Source: a virus. From it: a stretch of DNA of 13,932 nucleotides. Where the stretch lies: the UHGV virus genome UHGV-0136738; one strand, given 5' to 3'. The notes under the pieces are model-generated. The model searched no databases, had not been told where the DNA came from, and was given only the letters and a program-made list of their open reading frames with translations. Shown here piece by piece: positions 350-13,688 of this stretch. Within the stretch, counting starts at the first letter, position 1, and each line of letters begins with the position of its first letter. The position numbers and the translations under genes were made by a program.

Positions 350-2242
350 TTATGTCATACGGTAGTGCACCCAAGAAGATATAGCAACACCAACCGGAGT
401 TGGGCGTGTAACGTTTATATTGCTACCTGAAATATACGCTCTGTCAGCGCTAGCAGCGGAATCGTTGGCATACGCGGTGCATATATATGTCTCAGGACCC
501 TTATTAGATATAGTGACTGTCCCACTCCCTCCGCCGGATGCAATAGGAACCTCTATAATTCCGTCTGTATTAACACCGGTATTGCCGACGTAGGTATTCA
601 CCGCAGATTTAATAGCATCTGTTATTGACGTTAGCGTGTTATTACGTATAGTCAGATTGCCGCTAGATTGCAGGTAAAGCGCGGCCCCTAAGATACACCC
701 ACTAACTACACTCCCCGAGGTATTGCTGTAAAAAGCAATAGCGAAGGTATTAACGCCGCCACCAGTCGCTATAGTGCAATCCTTAATCGCCATCTTACCA
801 GCACCTGGCCCTATATTTATCCCGATGTTATTGTTGGTTGCATTTGAGTTCTCCGCGTTTATGTGGAGGCCTTGTAGCAGTTTATGCTGTTGCGCGGACG
901 ACATATTCGGGAACGTGACACCGAAGAATTGGTTAGTACCACTACCATCAGCGGCTATCCATGAGTTTACTAAGCTAAATCCACCATTTACGTTTTGAAC
1001 AACAACACCAGAATCCTGGCAATAATCCAGGTCCAAATTTGATAGATGGATATCGAGGCCGTCGTCGATGTACACCCCGTGTTGGAAGCGTATACACATC
1101 GTTTCGCCATTTACAATAATGGCTTCTGAGCGCACTGGGTTCGACCCATTCCACGTGTAGGTAGTTGGTTGAATACGAATGCCGAAACTATTAGAAACAG
1201 GGCCGCCGTCTCTACTAAAATGACAGCCACTAACCAATACACTGACACATTGGCCGAGTAAATGCAGCCCGATTCGACATGTACCCGCCTGACATGCTAT
1301 AAACTGGGAGTGCCACAAGCCTTGCATAAGATACGCCGTGTCTACCTCATTAACAGAAACGTGGTCAAACTTCCAACCGTACACTTGACGAATTACAGAG
1401 TCGGTAGAAGACAGATTAGTGTCAATACCGTTACATGAGTTATTGCCGGTGATTGATATGTCTTTTAAGTACCTGCCTATAGTATTTGAATCGTAGGCCA
1501 GGCGGAGTACCGCCCCCGTAAGAGTACTTTTTGCTCTAATTTGGGACCCTCTTCCATCCCCGCGGATATTAACTCCAGACGGAACCGTAACGGTGCTTCC
1601 GACATAGTAACCAACAGCATATTTACTAGCAGGTATGTAAACCTCCACACCATTAGGAAACGCCGCAGATACGGCATCGAAGCACGCCTGAAACGCGGCT
1701 GAGTTATCTGTGACCCCGTCGTCCACAACACCAAAATCAAGAACGCTTATGATGTCAGCGTTCTTTTCGTGCTGGCTTCTCGGTGACGAGTCGGTGATGT
1801 CCAGTTTAACCGCAACAAGGGCGTCCCCCATTAGTATGTCAGAGCTATCAGCCAAATTTTCCCGTAAATCCGGGTCAGTTTGCGGCTTCCAGTCGGCGCT
1901 GCCAACCGGATTAAAACTGGCAGGGACCACAACTGGCAGCGTACCAGCGTATGAGTACCACGTCTGGCTAACCGGGTCGTAAACCACTTTGTCGCGGTCA
2001 TTAACTGTCAACGTACCGCCGGTGGAAAAGTCCCATGACACCGGAGAAAAACCTGCGTCGCGTAACACCGCCGGAAGCGTCTTCTGTGTCTGGCCCGTAA
2101 CAGCGTTGGTCGCATAATCGATATCTGCACCGCCAGCGACGCCACCGGACTTACCAGTAATAACCTCGGCTTCAAAAATCTGGTGTTTCTTGGCGGTCTG
2201 TAAATCCGCCAGGCTTAAAACGTCACCACATCCGCTTGACAT
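350..2242 (-). CDS. tailspike / tail fibre protein with pectate-lyase-like right-handed beta-helix (putative polysaccharide depolymerase)
   Basis: 630-aa ORF with ATG at 2242 and SD AAGAGGA about 7 nt upstream. Residues about 165-190, ISVLDFGVVDDGVTDNSAAFQACFDAV, match the signature recalled for pectate-lyase-superfamily beta-helix tailspikes (DFGAxGDGxTDDTxAxQxA). The rest is rich in G/N/S/T-x-V/I repeats typical of beta-helix rungs. It is the last gene of the tail module. Confidence 0.8.
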   Translation of the reverse strand: MSSGCGDVLSLADLQTAKKHQIFEAEVITGKSGGVAGGADIDYATNAVTGQTQKTLPAVLRDAGFSPVSWDFSTGGTLTVNDRDKVVYDPVSQTWYSYAGTLPVVVPASFNPVGSADWKPQTDPDLRENLADSSDILMGDALVAVKLDITDSSPRSQHEKNADIISVLDFGVVDDGVTDNSAAFQACFDAVSAAFPNGVEVYIPASKYAVGYYVGSTVTVPSGVNIRGDGRGSQIRAKSTLTGAVLRLAYDSNTIGRYLKDISITGNNSCNGIDTNLSSTDSVIRQVYGWKFDHVSVNEVDTAYLMQGLWHSQFIACQAGTCRIGLHLLGQCVSVLVSGCHFSRDGGPVSNSFGIRIQPTTYTWNGSNPVRSEAIIVNGETMCIRFQHGVYIDDGLDIHLSNLDLDYCQDSGVVVQNVNGGFSLVNSWIAADGSGTNQFFGVTFPNMSSAQQHKLLQGLHINAENSNATNNNIGINIGPGAGKMAIKDCTIATGGGVNTFAIAFYSNTSGSVVSGCILGAALYLQSSGNLTIRNNTLTSITDAIKSAVNTYVGNTGVNTDGIIEVPIASGGGSGTVTISNKGPETYICTAYANDSAASADRAYISGSNINVTRPTPVGVAISSWVHYRMT

Positions 2243-2254
2243 ATAGAGTCCTCT

Positions 2255-4810
2255 TTAATAAAAACCGTTGCTGAATCCGTCGGAGAAACCGCGACCGAAA
2301 GGCGCGACGCCGTCGTATTTATAGAAACCTTCATCATAGTTGTAGCCCGTAATCTTAACCGTGCGGTCGTCGCCTGGGTCGATTGAAGAGACAACTATCC
2401 TCTGAGCATTATGCCTTGCTTCGTTGCCGAATGAAAACTCAGTTTTTAGTGCACTATTCCCGGTGTAAATGGCTTCCTCTGGTGCGGATAGCATAACCAC
2501 CTCGCGGTCGTGGCCTCCTTTGATAACAGAAATACTCTGTACCGAGCCGTCGCGCTTCTTGAGGATGATTGAGTGGTCGTCCCCTGGGGTGAACGTAACA
2601 GGCTGTGACAGAGTTAGCGTAAGCCCATTAACGGCAACAACATAACCATCCTGAGGCGCGATACGTGAACCTTTAACCACGCTGATTACACCACCCGGTG
2701 TAGCGAGTGCACCCTCTTCGGTAGCTTCGAACTCTACGACAACTTTACTTAACGCGTTGCGCTGGTAGCGACGCCACGCCAGCCAATATGCCTGCTGATA
2801 GTTACGTACGCCCTTCGATTCATATTCCTCGGTGTTTGCTCCGAGTTCTTCCGGGATATAAATCGTTTCCTGTACGTTAGTATCCGGGTCGATGTATGAG
2901 AACGACAGGCTATCATAGGTTGTCGAATCGTTGAACGTGCGCGTCCATTTCTCTGTACCAGTAGTTTTGCTGCGGTGAGTGAACACCATCTCAGGCCCTG
3001 CGACCGGGCGGTCGAAGCGCAGCATAATATCCGCACCTTTACGGTACGCAGTACAGAACACGGCTTCCGCTATGGTCTGAACGATGTCCTGCATGGTTGT
3101 GTCGTAATCGTCGAACGTGTAACAGAATTGCCCGGCTAACTCACTGCCGAAATAGGATTCAATCTCTTCCTGCACAGCGAGTAACTTGTCCATGTTTGCC
3201 GTCGTCAGTTGCAGATTGCCTACTGCGGGGTCGCGGGATAGTCTGATTAGCGACTGAACCGCCTGTGTATTAGGCGTCATTACTGTATCGAATACCCCAT
3301 TGCCGAGGTATTTGTAACACATCTCTGTCGCAATCATGCGTAGTTCCGGGTTGTCGATACTGGCGGCACGCGGCGTCTGTTTGCGGGCACAATGTACGGT
3401 AGTTCGGTTTCCGTAGTGCGGGGTGGTGTCCAGTGACTGACCGTACAGGTTGATGAATGTTATCTCGTCGCTTACCGTTCCGTCGTAGTCCTTATCGAAA
3501 TTCGTTATGCGGCGCATACGGGCGCGGAAACGGGACGCGGTCGGCAATTGCCCGTAAATAGATGTGCCAGCGTAATCGGTGCTATTGCCCGTAATTGTAG
3601 CCCGTACCGTGTAAATGTCGCTCAAAGGGTTGCGTTGAGAGTCAATCATCTGGTACTGGAGTTCTACGGTTACGCTGGTGCGGTTATATCCTCCGTCGTA
3701 TTTGTAGAGGCCGTTCTGCCCAGCTACGTTAACTAGCACACGGTCAACTTCTCCGCGTACCATGTAATACCAGTCGGTCAGGGATACATCATAGGTGTTG
3801 CTAGGGCCGATAAACGTATCTGAACGCTCTGTTAACGTGTACGTCTGCCCGCTAGTCAACGCCGCCCAGTTAGAAGCTCCGTTTACCGCTAATCTTACTT
3901 CGAAGTCGTCAACGTATAAAACCTCAAACGAGCCATTCAGGTTAGTGACATCAGCGACGTCAAAGTTGCTCAGCACCGCGACATCACCAACGCTAAGAAA
4001 TTCAGAAAAAGCAGAGTCACCTGACGGGTCATAGATGTAGCCGGTGTTTGAAATACGTTTAGCTGTACCGTCGGCGCTTGGGTTAGCTCCGATGTCGTTT
4101 GGCGCTTTCAGTACAATACCGTCAACGTCGTCGTTGGAGTATGTAACGTAGAGTTTCTGGTCAATGACGTCGCCGATTTGTAGTTGCGGTGAAGCGGTGT
4201 TGTTCGGAGAAGTATACGGCGCATACACGGCAACAGAGGAACCGGTGATGTCGCTTATCAGGGTGTCCCCCTCCGTGACACCATCAGCCTCGATATGCAG
4301 ATGCCCGCGACCAGCGTCATAGTATGAATACTCCAGCAAAGCACCAGTGGAGTTGAACGCTTTATACGTCTGCATCAGGTCGTTAGGGATTGTCTGCACA
4401 GTCCCGCAGATGTCGTAAGAGCGCTCGTACGGGCGAGGCTTGTTTGAGCGGTCTGTGAGGCTGTTATTCGGAGATGTTGTCTGGTTATTTGTTGCCGTGT
4501 AGTTGGCGTTAGCAGACATGTTAAGACCGAACAGTTTGGCGATAGGCTTGAGGATAAAGCCAAATACCTTACTAACCGCGCTAAGCGCGCCACTACCGGC
4601 GCCCTCAATAATATGGTAAACAGCTTCTTCATCTTTAAGTGCGTCGAAGTCGTCTGTTACGTCAGTATCATCGCCGATTTCACCGAGGTAGACGCGCACG
4701 GGCACACCGTCCGGGATACGGTTAACGACAAACTCCATCGGCATCCCGACGTGTTTTGTACGGTCGAAAGCGCCTTCAGCGTTTCGCGTGTAATGCAGGA
4801 TTATCGCCAA
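2255..4810 (-). CDS. large tail-tip / host-specificity protein (gpJ-like position), putative
   Basis: 851-aa ORF directly upstream of the tailspike and downstream of the NlpC/P60-like gene, the position held by the central fibre/host-specificity protein in lambda- and GTA-like tail modules. Start is ambiguous: TTG at 4810 with GGAG 8 nt upstream, or the first ATG at 4744. No catalytic motif recognised. Confidence 0.5.
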   Translation of the reverse strand: MAIILHYTRNAEGAFDRTKHVGMPMEFVVNRIPDGVPVRVYLGEIGDDTDVTDDFDALKDEEAVYHIIEGAGSGALSAVSKVFGFILKPIAKLFGLNMSANANYTATNNQTTSPNNSLTDRSNKPRPYERSYDICGTVQTIPNDLMQTYKAFNSTGALLEYSYYDAGRGHLHIEADGVTEGDTLISDITGSSVAVYAPYTSPNNTASPQLQIGDVIDQKLYVTYSNDDVDGIVLKAPNDIGANPSADGTAKRISNTGYIYDPSGDSAFSEFLSVGDVAVLSNFDVADVTNLNGSFEVLYVDDFEVRLAVNGASNWAALTSGQTYTLTERSDTFIGPSNTYDVSLTDWYYMVRGEVDRVLVNVAGQNGLYKYDGGYNRTSVTVELQYQMIDSQRNPLSDIYTVRATITGNSTDYAGTSIYGQLPTASRFRARMRRITNFDKDYDGTVSDEITFINLYGQSLDTTPHYGNRTTVHCARKQTPRAASIDNPELRMIATEMCYKYLGNGVFDTVMTPNTQAVQSLIRLSRDPAVGNLQLTTANMDKLLAVQEEIESYFGSELAGQFCYTFDDYDTTMQDIVQTIAEAVFCTAYRKGADIMLRFDRPVAGPEMVFTHRSKTTGTEKWTRTFNDSTTYDSLSFSYIDPDTNVQETIYIPEELGANTEEYESKGVRNYQQAYWLAWRRYQRNALSKVVVEFEATEEGALATPGGVISVVKGSRIAPQDGYVVAVNGLTLTLSQPVTFTPGDDHSIILKKRDGSVQSISVIKGGHDREVVMLSAPEEAIYTGNSALKTEFSFGNEARHNAQRIVVSSIDPGDDRTVKITGYNYDEGFYKYDGVAPFGRGFSDGFSNGFY

Positions 4811-5681: not shown

Positions 5682-7082
5682 TTAACCGTCCACATTAAAG
5701 TCGATACGAGTGATATATTTACTACCCCACGCGGAGTCCGCCTGCGGGATAATGGCGTAGTTATCTACGGCGGGTACGTTTACGGTAGACCCATCGGAAT
5801 AGGTAATGTCGATACTTGTCGCGCCGTTCATGGTTACTTTTGCGGATGCCGTGGTCCGGGTCACAGATGAAGAACCAGTTACTATCGGGGACGTGGCATG
5901 GCCTGATGGTTCCATTTGTATCAACGCGATATTGAACCCGCTGACACCATCCCCCGTGAAGGTGAGGGAGTTAGACGACGACAACATGTTTATCTGCGAA
6001 TAAATCAATCCGCCAGAGTCGTTAGTGTCCGCGGACATTGAAACGTGATACCACCCACCACCGAGATTACTTACAAACGACCTTGAGGTGTCGCCTGATA
6101 TCAAATCACCAGAGGCTAAGTCAACATAGGCATACTGGAAATTATCTAAAGCGGCTGGGTTGCCGATGGTTACCGCTGCTGACTGGTACTCATCTGCTTT
6201 CATAATAGCACTAATAGAGTATCTTGTTTCTTGTTCTGGGGCCTCTGGCTGGTTTATATAGTGGCTCCCTGATACCGACGTTGCGGCTAATTTAGCGGCG
6301 TAAGTTTCTTGGAATAACATCAAAGAACTCGCCGTGGTTGTTGTTCTGGTGCGTGAAAATGATGTAGATAGTAAGTTGTTAGAGTGTTCTACCACGTTGG
6401 TTGAAGCGCTTTCCGGCGGCACACGCCCAACAGCAACCCCATCGATAAACGTAAGGGGCCATTCATCGGCAGCGGACGGCACAAGATTGCCGTTTCGGTT
6501 GATGTAGTAAACCTGCGGCCCGTCATACACAATGCGGTTATCTAGTGTAGACGCCAGAAGGTTAATCGGTGGATAACCCGCGGGACCTTCGTTACTCCAG
6601 ATGCGGGGGAACGTAGTTTCGTAGTTCGCGTATATCTTAAGGAAACTGCCCAGACAGTCGCCGTAGCAACCATACAAATCCGGCAGATTGTTAATCAGGC
6701 ACTGGTTCTCAAGGTCCTGGAACGGCGATTTCTCAGCGGTTGCCGTGAAAGTAATCGTCCAGTTAATGCCATCTTCGGTGGACTCCGCGATGGTTGACGT
6801 AATGGTTACCTGGTAATCCTCGATACCCATGCCGAAGTCGTGCGCCATCCAGAAACTGGACGCGCCGCCGTCTACTTTCTCAAGAAACGCGAGGAAAGTC
6901 TGTCGTCCAAGCGCGGAGGTGATAAGCGTCACACTGACAGGGAACACGTCATAATAGGTGTCACGCCCCTGACGGACGCCACCACCCGCTAAATCAACAC
7001 TCCAGACGTTGTTACGTCTGGTCATCGAGTAGCCTTTCGACACAATAGGCTTAAGGCTACGTGGAAAAAATAAGTCACCCAT
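5682..7082 (-). CDS. minor tail protein (distal tail protein position), putative
   Basis: 466-aa ORF whose ATG at 7082..7080 overlaps the TMP stop codon as TAATG, indicating translational coupling. It is the first gene after the tape measure, where the distal tail or minor tail protein usually sits. Confidence 0.5.
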   Translation of the reverse strand: MGDLFFPRSLKPIVSKGYSMTRRNNVWSVDLAGGGVRQGRDTYYDVFPVSVTLITSALGRQTFLAFLEKVDGGASSFWMAHDFGMGIEDYQVTITSTIAESTEDGINWTITFTATAEKSPFQDLENQCLINNLPDLYGCYGDCLGSFLKIYANYETTFPRIWSNEGPAGYPPINLLASTLDNRIVYDGPQVYYINRNGNLVPSAADEWPLTFIDGVAVGRVPPESASTNVVEHSNNLLSTSFSRTRTTTTASSLMLFQETYAAKLAATSVSGSHYINQPEAPEQETRYSISAIMKADEYQSAAVTIGNPAALDNFQYAYVDLASGDLISGDTSRSFVSNLGGGWYHVSMSADTNDSGGLIYSQINMLSSSNSLTFTGDGVSGFNIALIQMEPSGHATSPIVTGSSSVTRTTASAKVTMNGATSIDITYSDGSTVNVPAVDNYAIIPQADSAWGSKYITRIDFNVDG

Positions 7083-9355
7083 TATTTGAACCCCGGCGCG
7101 TTTCTTGTGGCCTTGCGGGCCTTGCTAATCTTACTGTTACTGTTCTGCAAAGAGGCGGCGACCTGTTCCTCGATGATGATGCGCAGACGCCCTTCATCAT
7201 CCTGCTCGGTGGACACGTTGCCGATTTGCGAACTCGTGTTGTTTACGATGGTAACATTAGATGGGCCGGAAGAAGACCCGTTTTGGCCCATAATCTCTTT
7301 CATTTGTTGCGCGGTGCGTACTCGCGACGCCCCCGCGGGCATAATTACCTCAGGTTTACCGCGTTCGGCGATGGTGGAAGCCTGCCCCGCGGATAACTGG
7401 CCCCCCTGTTCACGCGCGGACCTGATAGCGGAAACCTGCGCCATACCGGCCCCAACAGCAGCGGCAGCGGCTACTGGTGCAAGGAATGGCCCAACAACCG
7501 GGATAGCAGCTGTTGACTTATACGCTTCAATAGCTGCAGTATACGTAGCGATAGTGGCCTGCACAATCGCGAACGCCTTATAAGCGCCGGATGCTTCACC
7601 TAACGCGGATCCAATGTTAGAAGCCATGTTACCAAAAGCTGTTGCCGTTGCGTCAGCACGCTTGGTTGCGTACTGCTCGTTGATGGCGCTAAGCGCAGCC
7701 TGATATTGCTTCTCGCTAATAAGACCTTGTTCTCGGTACTTATCGGCTACCGCCAGTTTCTGCTGTTCCTGAATATCCAGAAGCTCAAGCTCGGTGGCGT
7801 TCTGGCCCATAATCTGAGCCATGAAATCCTCACCTTTCTGTTGCTTATCCTGGGCTTCTTTCTGGCGTTTATCCAGTTCATCCTGCCGTTTTTGCCCTGC
7901 TTCAAGAACAATGGCGGTTTTAGCCTGTTCGTACTCTTTTAACGATAGCGCACCCTGACTGTAGAACTCTTTTGCTTTAGCCAGTTTCTGCTGCTCCTGG
8001 GCGTCAATAGCCTTTAACTCGTCATTGTTCTGACGGGCCAAAGTGTCGAGGTAATCTTGTGCCTGATTACGCAATTGTTCTGCTTTCTTAGCGGCTGCTT
8101 TTGCTGCTTTATCGTCGGTTTTCCCCGTCCCACCAGTCCCGCCTTTTTTATCAACAAGGCTGGCTAAGTCGATTTCTTGCTTCTTGCGCTCGTCATACTG
8201 CTTGCGCTGTTCCTCAATTTCTTTCTTACGCTGCTTAGACCTGTCGGTAATGGCCTGGGACTCCGCCTCTGCGCGTTTTATGCTGGCGGCATATGCGGCG
8301 TCGGCCTCCGCAGTCAGGTTTTTAAATGTGAGCGCTGCCGTTTTGCTCGGGTCAAACACGTCAGCAAGAGTCTGGCCTAACGCTACGGCATAATCATCAA
8401 TGCGCTGAAACCATGCAATAACCTCGTGGAATGTCTGCTGAATGTCAGGCAACCACTCACGGATAGCGTCAGGGATTGTGCCAAGCGAATCTGACATGTT
8501 CGCCGATTTGTCTTCTGTGTCGTACGCCAAATCATTCAAGGCGTCAGAAATAAACTTGAACGACTCATTGAACAGCGTCGCCCAATCCTGGAGTGTGGAT
8601 GCTATCTCATTAGACGCAATGGCATCGGTGAGCGCAGTTACTGCGTCTTCGGCCGCCGCGGCTTGCTCACCTACGGCGTCGCCAAAACCAGACTGCGCTA
8701 CCGCAAGAACAAGACCGTCAAATGAGTCAGCAAGGCTCGACAACTGCCCGTCAAGGGTCTTCGAGCGCGTCTCCATCGCTCCGGCGAAATCAGTATTGCC
8801 GATGTTTAGCAGGTATTTCTGAATCTCTTCGGAGTTCTTCTTGACCGTGGTCGTTACGCCACGGAACGTGAACGAAACTGTGTCCGCCTGTTGGGAAGAC
8901 TTGATGCCGAACTCTTTTAAGCGCTCGAATTCAAATGTACTGGCGTCAGCAACTGCCTCAATCATCTGGTTAAGGTCTTTACCCATCGCAGCCGCAGTGT
9001 TGCCGTAGGAGATTAACGCCTCTTTGCTGGGGTTAAGCCCGAGCGCCACGAGCTTGGTAAATCCCTCTACAGCCTGGTTAAGCCCGTATGGTGTTTCTTT
9101 AGCAAACTGTTGCAGGACGCTGAAAGCCTTTGCCGCGTTCTCGGCGCTTCCGGTCATTGTGATGAGTCCGGAGTTCAGCTTATCGAAGTTGCGCTGAGAG
9201 TCCACCAGCGCGCTGAACACCTGTTTAGCGGTTTCCAGACTGACAACGGCAGCTGCCGCCGCCCCCGCCGCCTTGGTAAGCCCGTTCAGTTGAGATGTTG
9301 TTTTATCGACGCCGGTCGAAGATACTCGTACTATCAAACTAGCGGTATCAGCCAT
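7082..9355 (-). CDS. tail tape measure protein
   Basis: Long ORF, 757 aa from ATG at 9355 (AAGGT SD about 8 nt upstream; the ORF track extends to TTG at 9370). Ala-rich N-terminus, a long charged coiled-coil centre with two internal repeats (residues about 449-484 and 526-560), a hydrophobic Ala/Gly/Val-rich segment near residues 595-650, and location directly after two chaperone ORFs. Confidence 0.85.
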   Translation of the reverse strand: MADTASLIVRVSSTGVDKTTSQLNGLTKAAGAAAAAVVSLETAKQVFSALVDSQRNFDKLNSGLITMTGSAENAAKAFSVLQQFAKETPYGLNQAVEGFTKLVALGLNPSKEALISYGNTAAAMGKDLNQMIEAVADASTFEFERLKEFGIKSSQQADTVSFTFRGVTTTVKKNSEEIQKYLLNIGNTDFAGAMETRSKTLDGQLSSLADSFDGLVLAVAQSGFGDAVGEQAAAAEDAVTALTDAIASNEIASTLQDWATLFNESFKFISDALNDLAYDTEDKSANMSDSLGTIPDAIREWLPDIQQTFHEVIAWFQRIDDYAVALGQTLADVFDPSKTAALTFKNLTAEADAAYAASIKRAEAESQAITDRSKQRKKEIEEQRKQYDERKKQEIDLASLVDKKGGTGGTGKTDDKAAKAAAKKAEQLRNQAQDYLDTLARQNNDELKAIDAQEQQKLAKAKEFYSQGALSLKEYEQAKTAIVLEAGQKRQDELDKRQKEAQDKQQKGEDFMAQIMGQNATELELLDIQEQQKLAVADKYREQGLISEKQYQAALSAINEQYATKRADATATAFGNMASNIGSALGEASGAYKAFAIVQATIATYTAAIEAYKSTAAIPVVGPFLAPVAAAAAVGAGMAQVSAIRSAREQGGQLSAGQASTIAERGKPEVIMPAGASRVRTAQQMKEIMGQNGSSSGPSNVTIVNNTSSQIGNVSTEQDDEGRLRIIIEEQVAASLQNSNSKISKARKATRNAPGFK
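7691..8026 (-). repeat. internal duplication within the tape measure gene
   Basis: Peptides ELKAIDAQEQQKLAKAKEFYSQGALSLKEYEQAK and ELELLDIQEQQKLAVADKYREQGLISEKQYQAAL lie 76 codons apart. Their DNA cores gccagtttctgctgctcctg (7980..7999) and gccagtttctgctgttcctg (7752..7771) are 19/20 identical. Confidence 0.6.
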
Positions 9356-9680
9356 GATTTCTACCTTCAAAGATTGCTTCTAGGCCCATGATAATGTCTA
9401 TCTCAAACAGGCTAAGCTGTTTCTGTGTGACGTCGAGATAGGCTTTCAGGTCTTGCCACGTTACGGATTCTCTTGCAAACAATACTACCGCGTCATCGCG
9501 CACGTGTCGCGTAAACTTAATGTCGCAATACGTTTCAAAGGTGGATATGAAAAGGGGCGGGCATTCTGGCCCACCCCGTCGCGCTGCACGTTTTTTCTTA
9601 TCGATTACACCCATTGCGATAAGCGCCTGTTCGTGACCGTCGGCTATAGAATCAAATTCTCTGATTTTATGCTTATCCAC
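9348..9680 (-). CDS. tail assembly chaperone, T-like distal ORF (possibly made as a G-T fusion by -1 frameshift)
   Basis: 110-aa ORF from GTG at 9680 with no convincing SD. The same frame is open upstream to 9731 and overlaps the end of the 139-aa ORF in the -1 frame. Its TGA at 9350..9348 lies just inside the TMP start (ATGGCTGA). Confidence 0.5.
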   Translation of the reverse strand: MDKHKIREFDSIADGHEQALIAMGVIDKKKRAARRGGPECPPLFISTFETYCDIKFTRHVRDDAVVLFARESVTWQDLKAYLDVTQKQLSLFEIDIIMGLEAIFEGRNHG

Positions 9681-9712: not shown

Positions 9713-10132
9713 CTACTTTTCCTGCAATGCTTTACGCTCAGCATTATGGAACGCTGCCACCTGAGTACCAAGCCCCTTGAACTGGTCTAGAAGCTTATTA
9801 AACGCCTCTTTGGAGAACGGTTCATCATCAAAGCTCCAGCCGTTGACGACTTCCGCAGCGAGTTGGCGGTTCAGGTCTTCTGCCAGTTCATTAATCGCCA
9901 GGTTATATTCAGTATAGTCGCCGGATTCTTTGGCGGCTTTTTCGAGTTCTTCAAAACGTGCAAGCCCGCGACGGTACGCAATAATGAAAGCGCGACCCGC
10001 TTTAACGGCGACATCGGCATCAGGGCTTACTACGTTAAGCCACTCCCCCGAGTCTTCACCGTTCGGCAGGAGAATCGGCATCTTCTTGCCTACCATCGCT
10101 TTCTCTTCAAAATAAAAATCAGAAAGTTTCAT
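9713..10132 (-). CDS. tail assembly chaperone (G-like)
   Basis: 139-aa acidic ORF immediately upstream of the T-like ORF and the tape measure gene. ATG at 10132 has SD AAAGGA about 8 nt upstream. Confidence 0.6.
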   Translation of the reverse strand: MKLSDFYFEEKAMVGKKMPILLPNGEDSGEWLNVVSPDADVAVKAGRAFIIAYRRGLARFEELEKAAKESGDYTEYNLAINELAEDLNRQLAAEVVNGWSFDDEPFSKEAFNKLLDQFKGLGTQVAAFHNAERKALQEK

Positions 10133-10529: not shown

Positions 10530-11270
10530 ATGGCCCAGAAGAAAATAACCGACGAGCAGTTACAGGAAGAATTGAACGCCGGGGTGAAGAACGTAGATAT
10601 CGCCCGTAAATACGGCATCTCAGACCGCGTTATCCGAATCCGTAAAGCGAAGCTGGCTAAGAAAGGCGTAGGCCACGGGCGTGACGTAAGCCACCTTGTA
10701 CCAGACGGCTACAAGATTAAGGGTACGTCGTCTCTGGTGGACGAGTTCGGTAACACTAAGTTGCAGTGGGTTAAGACAGACACCGATGCCGAACGTCAGG
10801 TTGAGTTGATGAAAGCCGTAGTCGAAGGCATGAAGTCGGAGATTACTCCCGTTCCGCCAGTTAAGGCCGCCCGGGCTAAACGTGACGACAAGCTGCTTAA
10901 CCTGTACACCGTGTCTGATTTCCATCTCGGTATGTTAGCCTGGGCTGACGAGAGCGGCGACGACTGGGATATGAAAATCGCGGAGGACTTATTTTCACGA
11001 TGGTTTGATGCCGCGTTTCAGAAAGCACCGGATGCAGGTACGGGGGTTATTAATCTTCTTGGCGACTTAGCGCACTTCGATAGTCTTGATGCCGTTACAC
11101 CAGCAAGCGGTCATGTCCTTGACGCCGACACGCGTTACCAGAAACTTGTTCGCTATATGATTCGCATGGTACGCCGTGTTGTCGATATGGCACTGGTTAA
11201 ACATAAAACTGTTCGCTTGCTTATCGTGCAAGGGAACCACGACGAATCCGGGATGATTTGGCTGGCGTAG
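10530..11270 (+). CDS. HTH domain fused to N-terminal half of a calcineurin-like (SbcD/Mre11-type) metallophosphoesterase, ending at an in-frame TAG
   Basis: ATG at 10530 with strong SD GAGGAAG 5 nt upstream; the ORF-track GTG at 10425 overlaps the preceding gene. Residues about 17-42 (GVKNVDIARKYGISDRVIRIRKAKLA) look like a helix-turn-helix. Phosphoesterase motifs I (VSDFHLG), II (GDLAHFD) and III (GNHDE) follow. TAG at 11268..11270. Confidence 0.7.
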   Translation: MAQKKITDEQLQEELNAGVKNVDIARKYGISDRVIRIRKAKLAKKGVGHGRDVSHLVPDGYKIKGTSSLVDEFGNTKLQWVKTDTDAERQVELMKAVVEGMKSEITPVPPVKAARAKRDDKLLNLYTVSDFHLGMLAWADESGDDWDMKIAEDLFSRWFDAAFQKAPDAGTGVINLLGDLAHFDSLDAVTPASGHVLDADTRYQKLVRYMIRMVRRVVDMALVKHKTVRLLIVQGNHDESGMIWLA

Positions 11271-11660
11271 ATGTTCAGCACACTGTACGACAACGAGCCT
11301 CGTGTGTTCGTCGATACGTCGCCGGATGTGTATAAGATGGTGCAACACGGCAAAACGACGCTGTTCTTTCATCACGGGCATAAGGCACGCTTCGACGCAA
11401 TCGAGCCTGTTATGATTGCCAAGTTCCGCAAAGCGTTCGGCGAGAGCGTCTACAGCTACGCGCATGTAGGCCACCTCCACCACCAGAAGATTGTCGAAAG
11501 CCGTAACATGATTGTCGAACAACACCGCACCTTAGCCGCTAAAGACGCATACGCCTCCCGTGGCGGATGGATGTCAGGCCGCGGGGCAAATGTAATTACT
11601 TATAGCGCAGAATATGGCGAGGTCGCACGTTTAACTATTTCACCGGAGATGCTGGGATGA
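11271..11660 (+). CDS. C-terminal half of the same metallophosphoesterase (motifs IV-VI), same frame as the upstream ORF
   Basis: ATG at 11271 directly follows the TAG and is in the same frame (11271 minus 10425 is divisible by 3). Contains FFHHGH and AHVGHLHH, matching the downstream His and GHxH motifs of the fold. Ends with ATGA overlap into the next ORF. Confidence 0.65.
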   Translation: MFSTLYDNEPRVFVDTSPDVYKMVQHGKTTLFFHHGHKARFDAIEPVMIAKFRKAFGESVYSYAHVGHLHHQKIVESRNMIVEQHRTLAAKDAYASRGGWMSGRGANVITYSAEYGEVARLTISPEMLG

Positions 11661-12056: not shown

Positions 12057-12060
12057 GAAA

Positions 12061-12084: not shown

Positions 12085-13269
12085 TTATGCGTAGGTGATA
12101 CGCTGAATAACGATAGACGACTGATATTGGTTGCCCGTAGCCTGGCCTTCAATAGACTGAGTGATAGACTCTGGGCCGCCAATCTCTGGTGTAACTGCGG
12201 TCAACTCCGCACGTTTCAAACTGAAAGACATAGCCCCGTTTACCCCCGCCAGAATAGAGTTAATCTCTACCTGTTGCTCGTTGATAAACTTCTGAATCAT
12301 AGCCATGTCGTACAGTTTGCCCGCGATGGAAAAGGTGTTAGCCGCACGGCCTCGTTCAACGAACGCTACGTTACTGTTGCCGAGTTCGAACTGGGCGGAA
12401 GCACCGTTATCGTTGGTGATGGTCAGCGTGTCGCAACGCAACGGCGACGTACCATCGAACACTGACACATCTACAGATGAGAACGGCTCATCGGTAAACG
12501 TCACCTGAGAGAAATCAGAGCCAGCCGGAGGTGCAGTAAGAATCTCCTGGCTCAGGCCGATGAACGGGAAGCTGCCGGTTACCATCGCGTTAACCGCCTG
12601 CTCGATAGTGAAGCCGGAAATCTCAACTCCTTTGGTAAGCATGTACGCGTCAGGGTTTCCGCACTGGCCTTTGAACCAGGTCAGGATAGAGAACGTTTTA
12701 CACGCGTTACCGGTTTCCAGCTTGTCGCCGGTTTCCAGCTTGTCGCCGGTTTTAGCGTCAGTCGTTACAGTTTCTGTGGTAAGCGTGTGCTGAATACCTG
12801 CGCCTGTTACGACAAGAGCGGAAACTTCGGTAACGATGAATGGCTTCGCGTTATCGCCTGTCAGACCGGTGAACGCGATAAGGTCGCCAACTTCAACGCC
12901 GTCGGTAATGAAGCTACCGGTTGCGCGGGTGAACGTTTTACCAACCGGCGCAACCGTAATTTCCGCGCCAGTAATCTCGACGCCAGCCTGCCACGTAGAT
13001 GTCATCGCACCTGCGAGGAAATCATCCTGACTTTTTGAGCTAAGCTCGATGGCGTATTCCCCGGTTACCTGTTTGTTACCTGTGCGGATAGACGTGGTTT
13101 CACGGCTGCCGTCCAGTTCGTTTGACGTCAGTGCGTCACGTGTTACCGCGGGAACACCGCCAGTATTGCGCAACGGCGACCATACCGGGGAAGTCGGTGT
13201 TACGCCCGGGGTAGTTTCCGCCACATAGAATTGCGCGGTATTCGCGCCCTTAAAAGGAGTTGTAGCCAT
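12085..13269 (-). CDS. major tail (tube) protein, putative
   Basis: About 394 aa from ATG at 13269 (SD AGAGG 8 nt upstream; the ORF track starts at GTG 13275). Ser/Thr/Gly/Val-rich beta-type composition. Lies after a tail-terminator-like gene, is followed by a terminator, and precedes the chaperone/TMP genes. Confidence 0.5.
   Translation of the reverse strand: MATTPFKGANTAQFYVAETTPGVTPTSPVWSPLRNTGGVPAVTRDALTSNELDGSRETTSIRTGNKQVTGEYAIELSSKSQDDFLAGAMTSTWQAGVEITGAEITVAPVGKTFTRATGSFITDGVEVGDLIAFTGLTGDNAKPFIVTEVSALVVTGAGIQHTLTTETVTTDAKTGDKLETGDKLETGNACKTFSILTWFKGQCGNPDAYMLTKGVEISGFTIEQAVNAMVTGSFPFIGLSQEILTAPPAGSDFSQVTFTDEPFSSVDVSVFDGTSPLRCDTLTITNDNGASAQFELGNSNVAFVERGRAANTFSIAGKLYDMAMIQKFINEQQVEINSILAGVNGAMSFSLKRAELTAVTPEIGGPESITQSIEGQATGNQYQSSIVIQRITYA
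12710..12753 (-). repeat. perfect 18-bp tandem duplication inside the major tail gene
   Basis: Plus-strand unit ggtttccagcttgtcgcc occurs twice in tandem (12712..12729 and 12730..12747), followed by a partial third copy ggtttt. It encodes the in-frame peptide repeat TGDKLETGDKLETG. Confidence 0.9.
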
Positions 13270-13271
13270 AT

Positions 13272-13688
13272 TCACAGCCTCTTGGTGAATGCAATAAAGT
13301 TAATCGACAATGGTCTTTTGGCCCATCCATTTTCTACAATCAGCGGCCCCAGGCTAACCGATTGCACTTCGGCGCAGATGTCGTTACGTGAAAATGACTT
13401 ACCTGCTTTGAATGCCGTGTTAAGTAAGTCTGCCATTTTATTGATTGGCGCGCTACCTTTCACCGATGCGTAGTTAATGTCTACCTGATAAACACCGGCG
13501 CGTTGCTCGGTGAAGAATAAGTCGGCCTGCTCTGTATCCGCCAGCAGCATGTAGCTAGCCAGATACGGCGTATCAGTTGACGTTGGGGCGTCGATATTTT
13601 CAAGCGCAACTTTGATGCCGTTGGTGTTTCCGAAGGCTACCAGCGGCACGTCAAACGCTTTTGTTAAATCCTCAAAGTAGCCCATCAT
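13272..13688 (-). CDS. tail terminator / tail completion protein-like, putative
   Basis: 138-aa ORF with SD AAGGTG just upstream of tandem ATG codons; its stop lies 2 nt before the major tail gene ATG. Size and position match a tail terminator; no motif recognised. Confidence 0.4.
   Translation of the reverse strand: MMGYFEDLTKAFDVPLVAFGNTNGIKVALENIDAPTSTDTPYLASYMLLADTEQADLFFTEQRAGVYQVDINYASVKGSAPINKMADLLNTAFKAGKSFSRNDICAEVQSVSLGPLIVENGWAKRPLSINFIAFTKRL

Follow-up and report, generated by a model that had tools for sequence, protein, structure and literature searches.

What kind of receptor-binding protein stands at the end of this tail gene cluster, from where were its parts drawn, and which surface glycan would it attack? 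These questions are raised by positions 350 to 2,242 of UHGV virus genome UHGV-0136738, a complete metagenomic contig (ENA ERZ1749178, NODE_1538) of 13,932 nucleotides with a coverage of approximately 2.9×, which was analysed at its full length and is referred to here as the window. An earlier note, made from the letters alone, had placed a β-helix tailspike and likely polysaccharide depolymerase at these positions. Its coordinates were exact, although it had not stated the strand: a single open reading frame (ORF) of 630 codons, read from the minus strand, fills 350..2242 exactly together with its TAA stop at 350−352, whereas the plus-strand reading of the same interval contains many stops. 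Plus-strand ORFs of 57−90 amino acids within 350−2242 lie opposite a strongly conserved gene and were treated as spurious. We consider it highly probable that the product is the single tailspike of a Kagunavirus-type siphovirus, and that it is a chimera of two modules whose body is an Sf6-type endorhamnosidase, with a Shigella flexneri-type O-antigen as the most likely substrate.

The identity of the body was determined by sequence searches and structure prediction. A phmmer search of the Protein Data Bank (PDB) gave strong matches only to the Sf6 tailspike (7SG7, 2VBE and 4URR; E approximately 3e-168), and these covered residues 121−627. Over that interval the identity to Sf6 gp14 was 54.8%, and over residues 161−460 it was 65−68%. 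Two Pfam domains exceeded their cut-offs of 27 bits: PF12708 (Pect-lyase_RHGA_epim; 3.9e-8, 33.8 bits) at residues 165−265 and PF21519 (Tailspike_C; 5.1e-16, 58.9 bits) at residues 560−627. The AlphaFold2 model, a monomer predicted with 35 homologues, had a mean predicted local distance difference test (pLDDT) score of 85.9 and contained short strands throughout residues 199−552, in agreement with the repetitive β-rung composition claimed earlier. When the model was compared with the PDB using Foldseek, 4URR, 2VBE and 2VBK were returned with target-normalised template modelling (TM) scores of 0.95−0.96, root-mean-square deviations of 1.5−1.6 Å and 54% identity; the runner-up folds, CBA120 TSP3 and HK620, were far behind (TM approximately 0.45). 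Structure prediction thus gave the β-helix that the earlier note had proposed. The DFGxxxDGxTDxxxAxQ signature on which the note had relied occurs once in the spike and is also present at residues 165−181 of Sf6 gp14; its ten fixed residues cannot plausibly have come together by chance in 630 amino acids.

The Sf6 protein (Lederbergvirus, a podovirus; 2VBK, 2VBE, 2VBM, 4URR and 7SG7) shares with the spike the neck, a 13-rung-type β-helix and the C-terminal β-sandwich, together with the DFG..DG.TD motif, the catalytic Glu and Asp, most of the groove residues checked, and both Pfam domains. From the agreement in fold, catalytic residues and C-terminal domain, we conclude that residues 121−627 are a bona fide Sf6-type tailspike body. 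The parts of the gene are as follows.

350..2242, minus strand: tailspike coding sequence (ORF list and translation; PHROG 28781 'tail spike', E 8.8e-186)
1883..2242, minus strand: Kagunavirus-type N-terminal anchor, residues 1−120 (identity to Kagunavirus spikes; AlphaFold2 model)
1751..1882, minus strand: junction motif QTDPDLRENLA and neck before the β-helix, residues 121−164 (zone of natural recombination breakpoints)
1688−1738, minus strand: signature motif DFGVVDDGVTDNSAAFQ, residues 169−185, at the N-terminal end of the β-helix (regular-expression match)
566..1750, minus strand: right-handed parallel β-helix, predicted catalytic and receptor-binding body, residues 165−559 (PF12708; identity to Sf6; AlphaFold2 and Foldseek)
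1124..1126, minus strand: codon for Glu373, equivalent to catalytic Glu366 of Sf6 (alignment and codon check)
1025..1027, minus strand: codon for Asp406, equivalent to catalytic Asp399 of Sf6 (alignment and codon check)
353..565, minus strand: C-terminal β-sandwich Tailspike_C, residues 560−630 (PF21519; 49% identity to Sf6)

Glu366 and Asp399 are the catalytic residues of the Sf6 tailspike (PMC9728967, PMC7463171); they lie at the subunit interface, and the inactive variant in standard use is E366A/D399A (PMC9728967, PMC7463171, PMC6116271). The Sf6 literature numbering omits Met1, and the one-residue offset was checked with T315, N340 and Y400. In the spike, Glu373 stands in VRSEAII and Asp406 in LDLDYC, contexts identical to those of Sf6. 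Both carboxylates were kept in seven further homologues, down to approximately 31−54% identity over the spike body, and the catalytic residues were identical in independent contigs despite the low coverage of the window contig. Conservation of the groove was scored at seven Sf6 positions that are described as lying in or near the octasaccharide-binding groove; five (V204, D245, S246, T315 and Y400) were conserved, and two were changed (N340 to Gly346 and T443 to Ala450). Because the catalytic residues and most of the groove residues are conserved, assignment to the Sf6 type of two-carboxylate endoglycosidase is well supported. The Sf6 tailspike cuts α-(1→3) rhamnose−rhamnose bonds of the S. 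flexneri O-antigen to give octasaccharides (PMC6116271). Given the homology of the body and the conserved carboxylates, the spike is most likely a trimeric O-antigen hydrolase and not a lyase, and the polysaccharide-degrading type of receptor-binding protein proposed earlier is borne out to this extent. The tailspike of the Salmonella phage P22 is likewise an O-antigen endorhamnosidase with a β-helix, and its glycan-binding site is intra-subunit whereas that of Sf6 is inter-subunit (PMC10408124); the P22 protein was not among the sequence matches or the top structural matches in the PDB searches.

The N-terminal part of the spike gave a different result. Residues 1−120 were unrelated to Sf6 (18−26% identity), and PF09008 (Head_binding) found nothing in the spike at E ≤ 0.01, whereas it matched Sf6 gp14 at 6.4e-64. 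Sf6 has a P22-type head-binding domain at residues 1−113, where the spike described here has a Kagunavirus anchor and a siphovirus chassis. Because it lacks the head-binding domain, the spike belongs to the family through its body alone and is not, over its full length, an orthologue of gp14. Many Kagunavirus spikes were 76−89% identical to the anchor in amino acids over residues 1−144/170, and the C-termini of those spikes were unrelated; direct alignment of the anchor DNA with three Kagunavirus genomes gave 86−90% nucleotide identity. The model of the anchor consists of a helix (residues 11−27), a low-confidence linker and a small β domain at approximately residues 60−120, with pLDDT values of 80−91 in the β domain and below 50 at residues 1−52 apart from the helix. 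PF18668 (Tail_spike_N, of the CBA120 TSP1/gp66 type) matched weakly at residues 77−112 (segment YSYAGTLPVVVPASFNP; 19.8 bits against a cut-off of 25) and reached 33 bits, above that cut-off, in a homologue (P0004) with an anchor 70−78% identical. The same stretch, with the pattern YxWxGxLPxVVPA, gave weak PDB sequence matches to the N-terminal regions of three solved chains from tail fibres or spikes (9LNA, 9D84 and 8X8M). By sequence, residues 1 to approximately 125 are a genus-conserved Kagunavirus anchor, and the alignments identify the spike as a chimera of this anchor with an Sf6-type body.

The limits of the two modules were taken from the ends of DNA high-scoring pairs and from an alignment of anchors, the BLASTP end-points over 120 homologues being smeared by weak β-helix similarity. 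None of the 151 phage records that match window 1−2300 covered the β-helix DNA. Homology in these records was restricted to the 3′ flank (183/225−352) and the 5′ part of the gene, and the flanks were approximately 84−94% identical. In pairwise blastn comparisons the inner breakpoint fell at window position 1879 with NRG857CP3 (residue 121), 1851 with 22664BS2 (residue 130) and 2067 with K1ind3 (residue 58), and the outer breakpoint was 1−2 nucleotides from the stop codon in every case. Among 55 distinct Kagunavirus-type anchors, conservation ran through WKPQTDPxLRxxL (residues 118−130) and was then lost by body type. Homology to Sf6 starts at residue 121, which corresponds to Sf6 residue 113, where the head-binding domain of that protein ends. 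A second natural junction was found at approximately residue 165, because T1-like contigs share window 318−1749 (residues 165−630 and the terminator) at 84% nucleotide identity. The earlier note had taken the first 130 or so residues as the virion-attachment adaptor and the remainder as the most exchangeable part of the module; both claims held, the adaptor being conserved up to QTDPxLRxxL among Kagunavirus spikes with unrelated C-termini. Its exchange boundary at about residue 130 was essentially right, but lies nearer 121−130 and is joined by the second breakpoint at approximately 165.

The same arrangement is seen in the endosialidase spike of K1G and K1ind, the O16-specific spikes of BASEL Bas70−76 and the spike of vB_EcoS-22664BS2, which share the locus, anchor, downstream flank and terminator; in these other Kagunavirus spikes, however, the DNA of the body is unrelated, and in many cases the fold or family differs as well (endosialidase, other β-helices). 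The spike body is the region of the locus that falls outside Kagunavirus-level nucleotide identity to K1G, K1ind and NRG857CP3. Its G+C content was 0.472, compared with 0.543 for the anchor-coding part, 0.51 for the rest of the window and 0.44 for Sf6 gene 14. Relative to the closest metagenomic relative (P0001, 97% identical), synonymous divergence was 0.875 in the anchor and 0.20−0.26 in the body; because it was lower in the body, the body is the more recently shared of the two, compared with the chassis. The ratio of nonsynonymous to synonymous substitution rates (dN/dS) in the same comparison was 0.05−0.15, indicating purifying selection and a functional gene. Together, the low G+C content of the body, the contrast in synonymous divergence and the dN/dS values are consistent with the body having been acquired as a cassette. 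It is well documented that phages, Kagunavirus included, exchange receptor-binding domains horizontally while keeping genus-specific anchors (PMC10408124, PMC11990801).

Relatives of the complete chimera were found in metagenomes. Two Kagunavirus contigs encode it on the same chassis, at 97% (P0001, ERZ28634836) and 89% (P0002) amino acid identity. Two T1-like Drexlerviridae contigs, which are BEK6-like, share the body and terminator (P0003; 81% amino acid identity over residues 126−629), whereas their 175-residue N-terminus is unrelated and their junction is at approximately residue 165 rather than 125. In these T1-like contigs the spike gene (L003 8001−10061, L004 429−2489) does not lie with the tail-tip genes; it has a Zn-ribbon primase-like gene on one side and an Erf/exonuclease block on the other, and the shared terminator is at its 3′ end. 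Four further homologues (P0004, P0005, P0007 and P0008) have Sf6-like bodies on Kagunavirus anchors with approximately 31−54% identity over the body, which suggests that such bodies have long been present and have diversified there, and did not arrive in one recent transfer. In IMG/VR only four Sf6-like loci were found, at 49−54% identity. No cultured Kagunavirus among 50,697 phage records carries the Sf6-type body. What is new, then, is that in metagenomes this body is also carried by Kagunavirus and T1-like phages, the deposited phages that carry it being so far podoviruses only.

A distant blastn search with the spike-body DNA among 5,426 complete E. coli genomes revealed no close relative and no donor prophage, the sole weak match being a prophage tailspike of CFSAN061762 (65% over 650 nucleotides). 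Body peptides found no relative among bacterial contigs sampled at one genome per species. Kagunaviruses have been used in synthetic biology (PMC11990801), and an engineered construct was considered as a source of the chimera; it was rejected on the evidence of the independent contigs with the same architecture (97% and 89% amino acid identity) and abundant synonymous divergence.

To address the substrate, residues 310−630 were compared by tblastn with the 50,697 phage records. Only eight records were returned, representing four phages: Sf6 (Lederbergvirus), SFN6B (Drulisvirus), Buco/HRP29 (Bucovirus) and Moonfish (Schitoviridae), all of which are podoviruses isolated on S. flexneri. The SFN6B, Buco/HRP29 and Moonfish tailspikes have an Sf6-type body, with 41−44% identity over these residues; they are more distant than Sf6 and have other anchors on a podovirus chassis. 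The best available indirect argument is that all eight records are S. flexneri phages, and for this reason the substrate is probably a rhamnose-rich S. flexneri-type O-antigen. The earlier note had named capsule or O-antigen; the second is much more likely. Related O-antigens are reported for E. coli O13, O129 and O135 (Perepelov et al. 2010, as cited in PMC7685785; PMC12243508), and because of these antigens and the E. coli-like backbone of the window, an E. coli host is equally possible.

Several observations weigh against this interpretation. The assignment of hydrolase activity comes from homology, and the closest relative with activity data is at just 55% identity. Residues 461−560, the last rungs of the β-helix, are just 13−27% identical to Sf6, and the Sf6 N340 loop is replaced (GNYSADE to DGGPVSN). 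Host-range mutations of Sf6 map to A426, T443, N455, N508 and N556 (PMC9400499). The equivalents of N455, N508 and N556 lie within the poorly conserved residues 461−560, and those of A426 and T443 just N-terminal of them, where identity is still approximately 57%. Because the divergent segment includes three of the host-range sites, specificity could differ substantially from that of Sf6. The nearest relatives of the phage backbone are E. coli phages and not phages of Shigella. In addition, the trimer and its inter-subunit geometry are projected from homology onto a predicted monomer, and because of the 2.9× coverage single residues could be errors.

Some of these points favour an alternative that we consider appreciably less likely, although it deserves weight: the same fold and two-carboxylate hydrolase could act on another E. 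coli O-antigen (or capsule) unrelated to the S. flexneri rhamnose backbone, so that the similarity to Sf6 would reflect common ancestry and not a shared substrate. The modest overall identity, the divergent last rungs with the replaced N340 loop, and a backbone closest to E. coli Kagunaviruses would all fit this alternative, and Kagunavirus spikes do target many glycans, for example K1 and O16 (PMC10408124, PMC11990801). However, eight of the eight cultured-phage records with the homologous half infect S. flexneri, even at 41−50% identity and on four different chassis, and five of the seven groove-region residues are conserved. We therefore retain an S. flexneri-type O-antigen as the more probable substrate.

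Some tailspike homologues are inactive, and the spike could in principle be a pure adhesin that binds its glycan and has lost catalysis. Nothing specific points to this, and it is very improbable, because the VRSEAII and LDLDYC contexts are intact and conserved in all homologues examined and there is strong purifying selection across the whole body. Least probable of all is a polysaccharide lyase acting by β-elimination on a uronic acid-containing capsule, for although PF12708 is named 'pectate lyase-like' and there is a distant sequence match to the AlgE4 mannuronan epimerase (2PYG, 2e-6), the nearest solved relatives by far are the Sf6 endorhamnosidase structures (E 1e-168 versus 1e-6), the Sf6 hydrolase carboxylates are conserved, the PF12708 match is limited to the N-terminal cap and first rungs, and no lyase family or structure was among the significant Pfam, PDB-sequence or Foldseek matches. 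The family name refers to the fold only; thus the pectate-lyase-type enzyme of the earlier note stands as a fold, whereas its lyase chemistry gives way to the glycoside hydrolysis implied by the closest relative.

With an Sf6-type endorhamnosidase as the preferred reading, the spike might work as follows. The anchor (residues 1 to approximately 125) would attach the spike, presumably a trimer, to the tail tip, beside the J-like hub protein encoded next to it. The body would act as a retaining or inverting glycoside hydrolase through Glu373 and Asp406, the Sf6 equivalents of which face each other across the interface between two subunits of the trimer. O-antigen chains would be bound in the inter-subunit groove and cut into oligosaccharides, so that the virion could advance to the outer membrane. 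The backbone recognised would be Rha-Rha-Rha-GlcNAc (rhamnose and N-acetylglucosamine; the S. flexneri type), and tolerance of serotype decorations may be unlike that of Sf6.

The genomic setting was examined over the whole window. Nucleotide identity of 87−90% over approximately 80% of its length to K1G, K1ind1−3, NRG857CP3, BASEL Bas74 and others identifies the window as the tail module of a Kagunavirus, a siphovirus of the Guernseyvirinae. The minus-strand genes are, in order, the tail terminator, tail tube, two tail-assembly-chaperone ORFs, tape measure, a 466-residue protein, DUF1833, a 121-residue minor tail protein, an 851-residue J-like tip protein and, last, the spike. As in K1ind3, the spike gene is directly downstream of the J-like gene, which is where Kagunavirus tailspikes are encoded relative to the J-like central fibre gene (PMC11990801); Kagunaviruses in general need surface glycans, via the tailspike at this locus (PMC11990801). 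From the gene order and that report, the J-like protein is the probable docking partner of the anchor. It and the signals flanking the spike gene are listed here.

2255..4810, minus strand: J-like tail-tip protein, 851 residues (PHROG 469 'tail protein', E 8e-253; weak Pfam matches to GpJ FNIII-A and Phage-tail_3)
2249−2254, minus strand: Shine-Dalgarno sequence AGAGGA, 6 nucleotides upstream of the ATG at 2242−2240 (sequence read)
325−344, no strand assigned: GC-rich hairpin AAGGCCCCGTTTGGGGCCTT, lying between the tailspike gene and a 45-residue plus-strand ORF convergent with it at 183−320 (terminator scan)

The TAA of the upstream gene is at 2255−2257, and the ATG of the spike is 12 nucleotides beyond it. 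The hairpin at 325−344 has T-runs on both sides, with TTTTCT after the stem on the minus strand, reaches 25 bases past the spike stop codon, and is probably a bidirectional terminator; window 318−352 is common to Kagunavirus backbones and the Drexlerviridae-type cassette. Near-identical GC-rich hairpins, AAAGGCCCCGTTTGGGGCCTT at 324−344 and AAAGGCCCCTTTCGGGGCCTT at 12060−12080, differ by two mismatches, where none would be expected by chance. The first is 3′ of the spike gene and part of the cassette shared with a T1-like phage, and the second is 3′ of the tail tube gene.

Other observations concern the remainder of the window. The window opens with the 3′ part of an AP2-domain ORF (positions 1−186, plus strand; Pfam AP2 7e-5, below cut-off), which has an ATGA overlap with the next ORF; a related contig (L016) has a complete 161-residue HNH_3 and AP2 homing-endonuclease gene at the matching site, and the AP2 ORF is missing from most Kagunavirus relatives, whose homology begins at 183. 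Two mosaic patches, at 5851−6450 in the 466-residue ORF (5682..7082, minus strand) and at 7200−7950 in the tape measure gene, had 34−58% nucleotide identity to a Kagunavirus contig (L002) that is approximately 90% identical elsewhere. The 466-residue variant is also found in BASEL Bas70−76 and phage 590B at approximately 87%, and its Dit position directly after the tape measure, together with its variable C-terminal part, suggests that it may be a second host-interaction module. The chaperone ORFs at 9348..9680 and 9713..10132 (minus strand; PF08748-like, then PF23812) match the joined 'ORF22A/22B' of K1ind3, so that a programmed frameshift of the usual kind is implied. An in-frame TAG at 11268−11270 (plus strand) replaces a GAG (Glu) codon of K1ind3 ORF20, a calcineurin-like metallophosphoesterase of 376 residues, and splits the approximately 97%-identical gene into ...10530..11270 and 11271..11660; it could be a sequencing or assembly error at the coverage given above, or a genuine nonsense variant. 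In the tail tube gene (12085..13275, minus strand), positions 12710−12752 are a perfect 18-base-pair tandem repeat of 2.4 copies that encodes TGDKLE-TGDKLE.

That phage genera exchange receptor-binding modules is textbook knowledge, and the biology of this locus is in that respect unsurprising. It is possible, and we propose it with some hesitation, that this is the first Sf6-type endorhamnosidase module on a siphovirus chassis, moving as a discrete cassette of body and terminator with two fixed junctions, at the hinge QTDPxLRxxL (residues 121−130) and at the cap boundary near residue 165. If so, virulent small siphoviruses would attack S. flexneri-type O-antigens, of Shigella or of E. coli O13/O129/O135, and there would be a graft point, already validated in nature, at which Kagunavirus or T1-like phages could be retargeted. 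The practical value of the locus, a naturally proven fusion of a Kagunavirus anchor to an Sf6-type O-antigen hydrolase, is modest though real; Kagunavirus is a small, virulent and engineerable chassis, and the Sf6 tailspike is among the best-characterised enzymes of its kind. Should the spike indeed act on the S. flexneri backbone, it could enlarge the set of Shigella-specific probes, depolymerases and therapeutic phages, and something might be learned about serotype tolerance from its divergent distal rungs. For the family itself, the finding means that the module circulates beyond the podoviruses in which it was studied.

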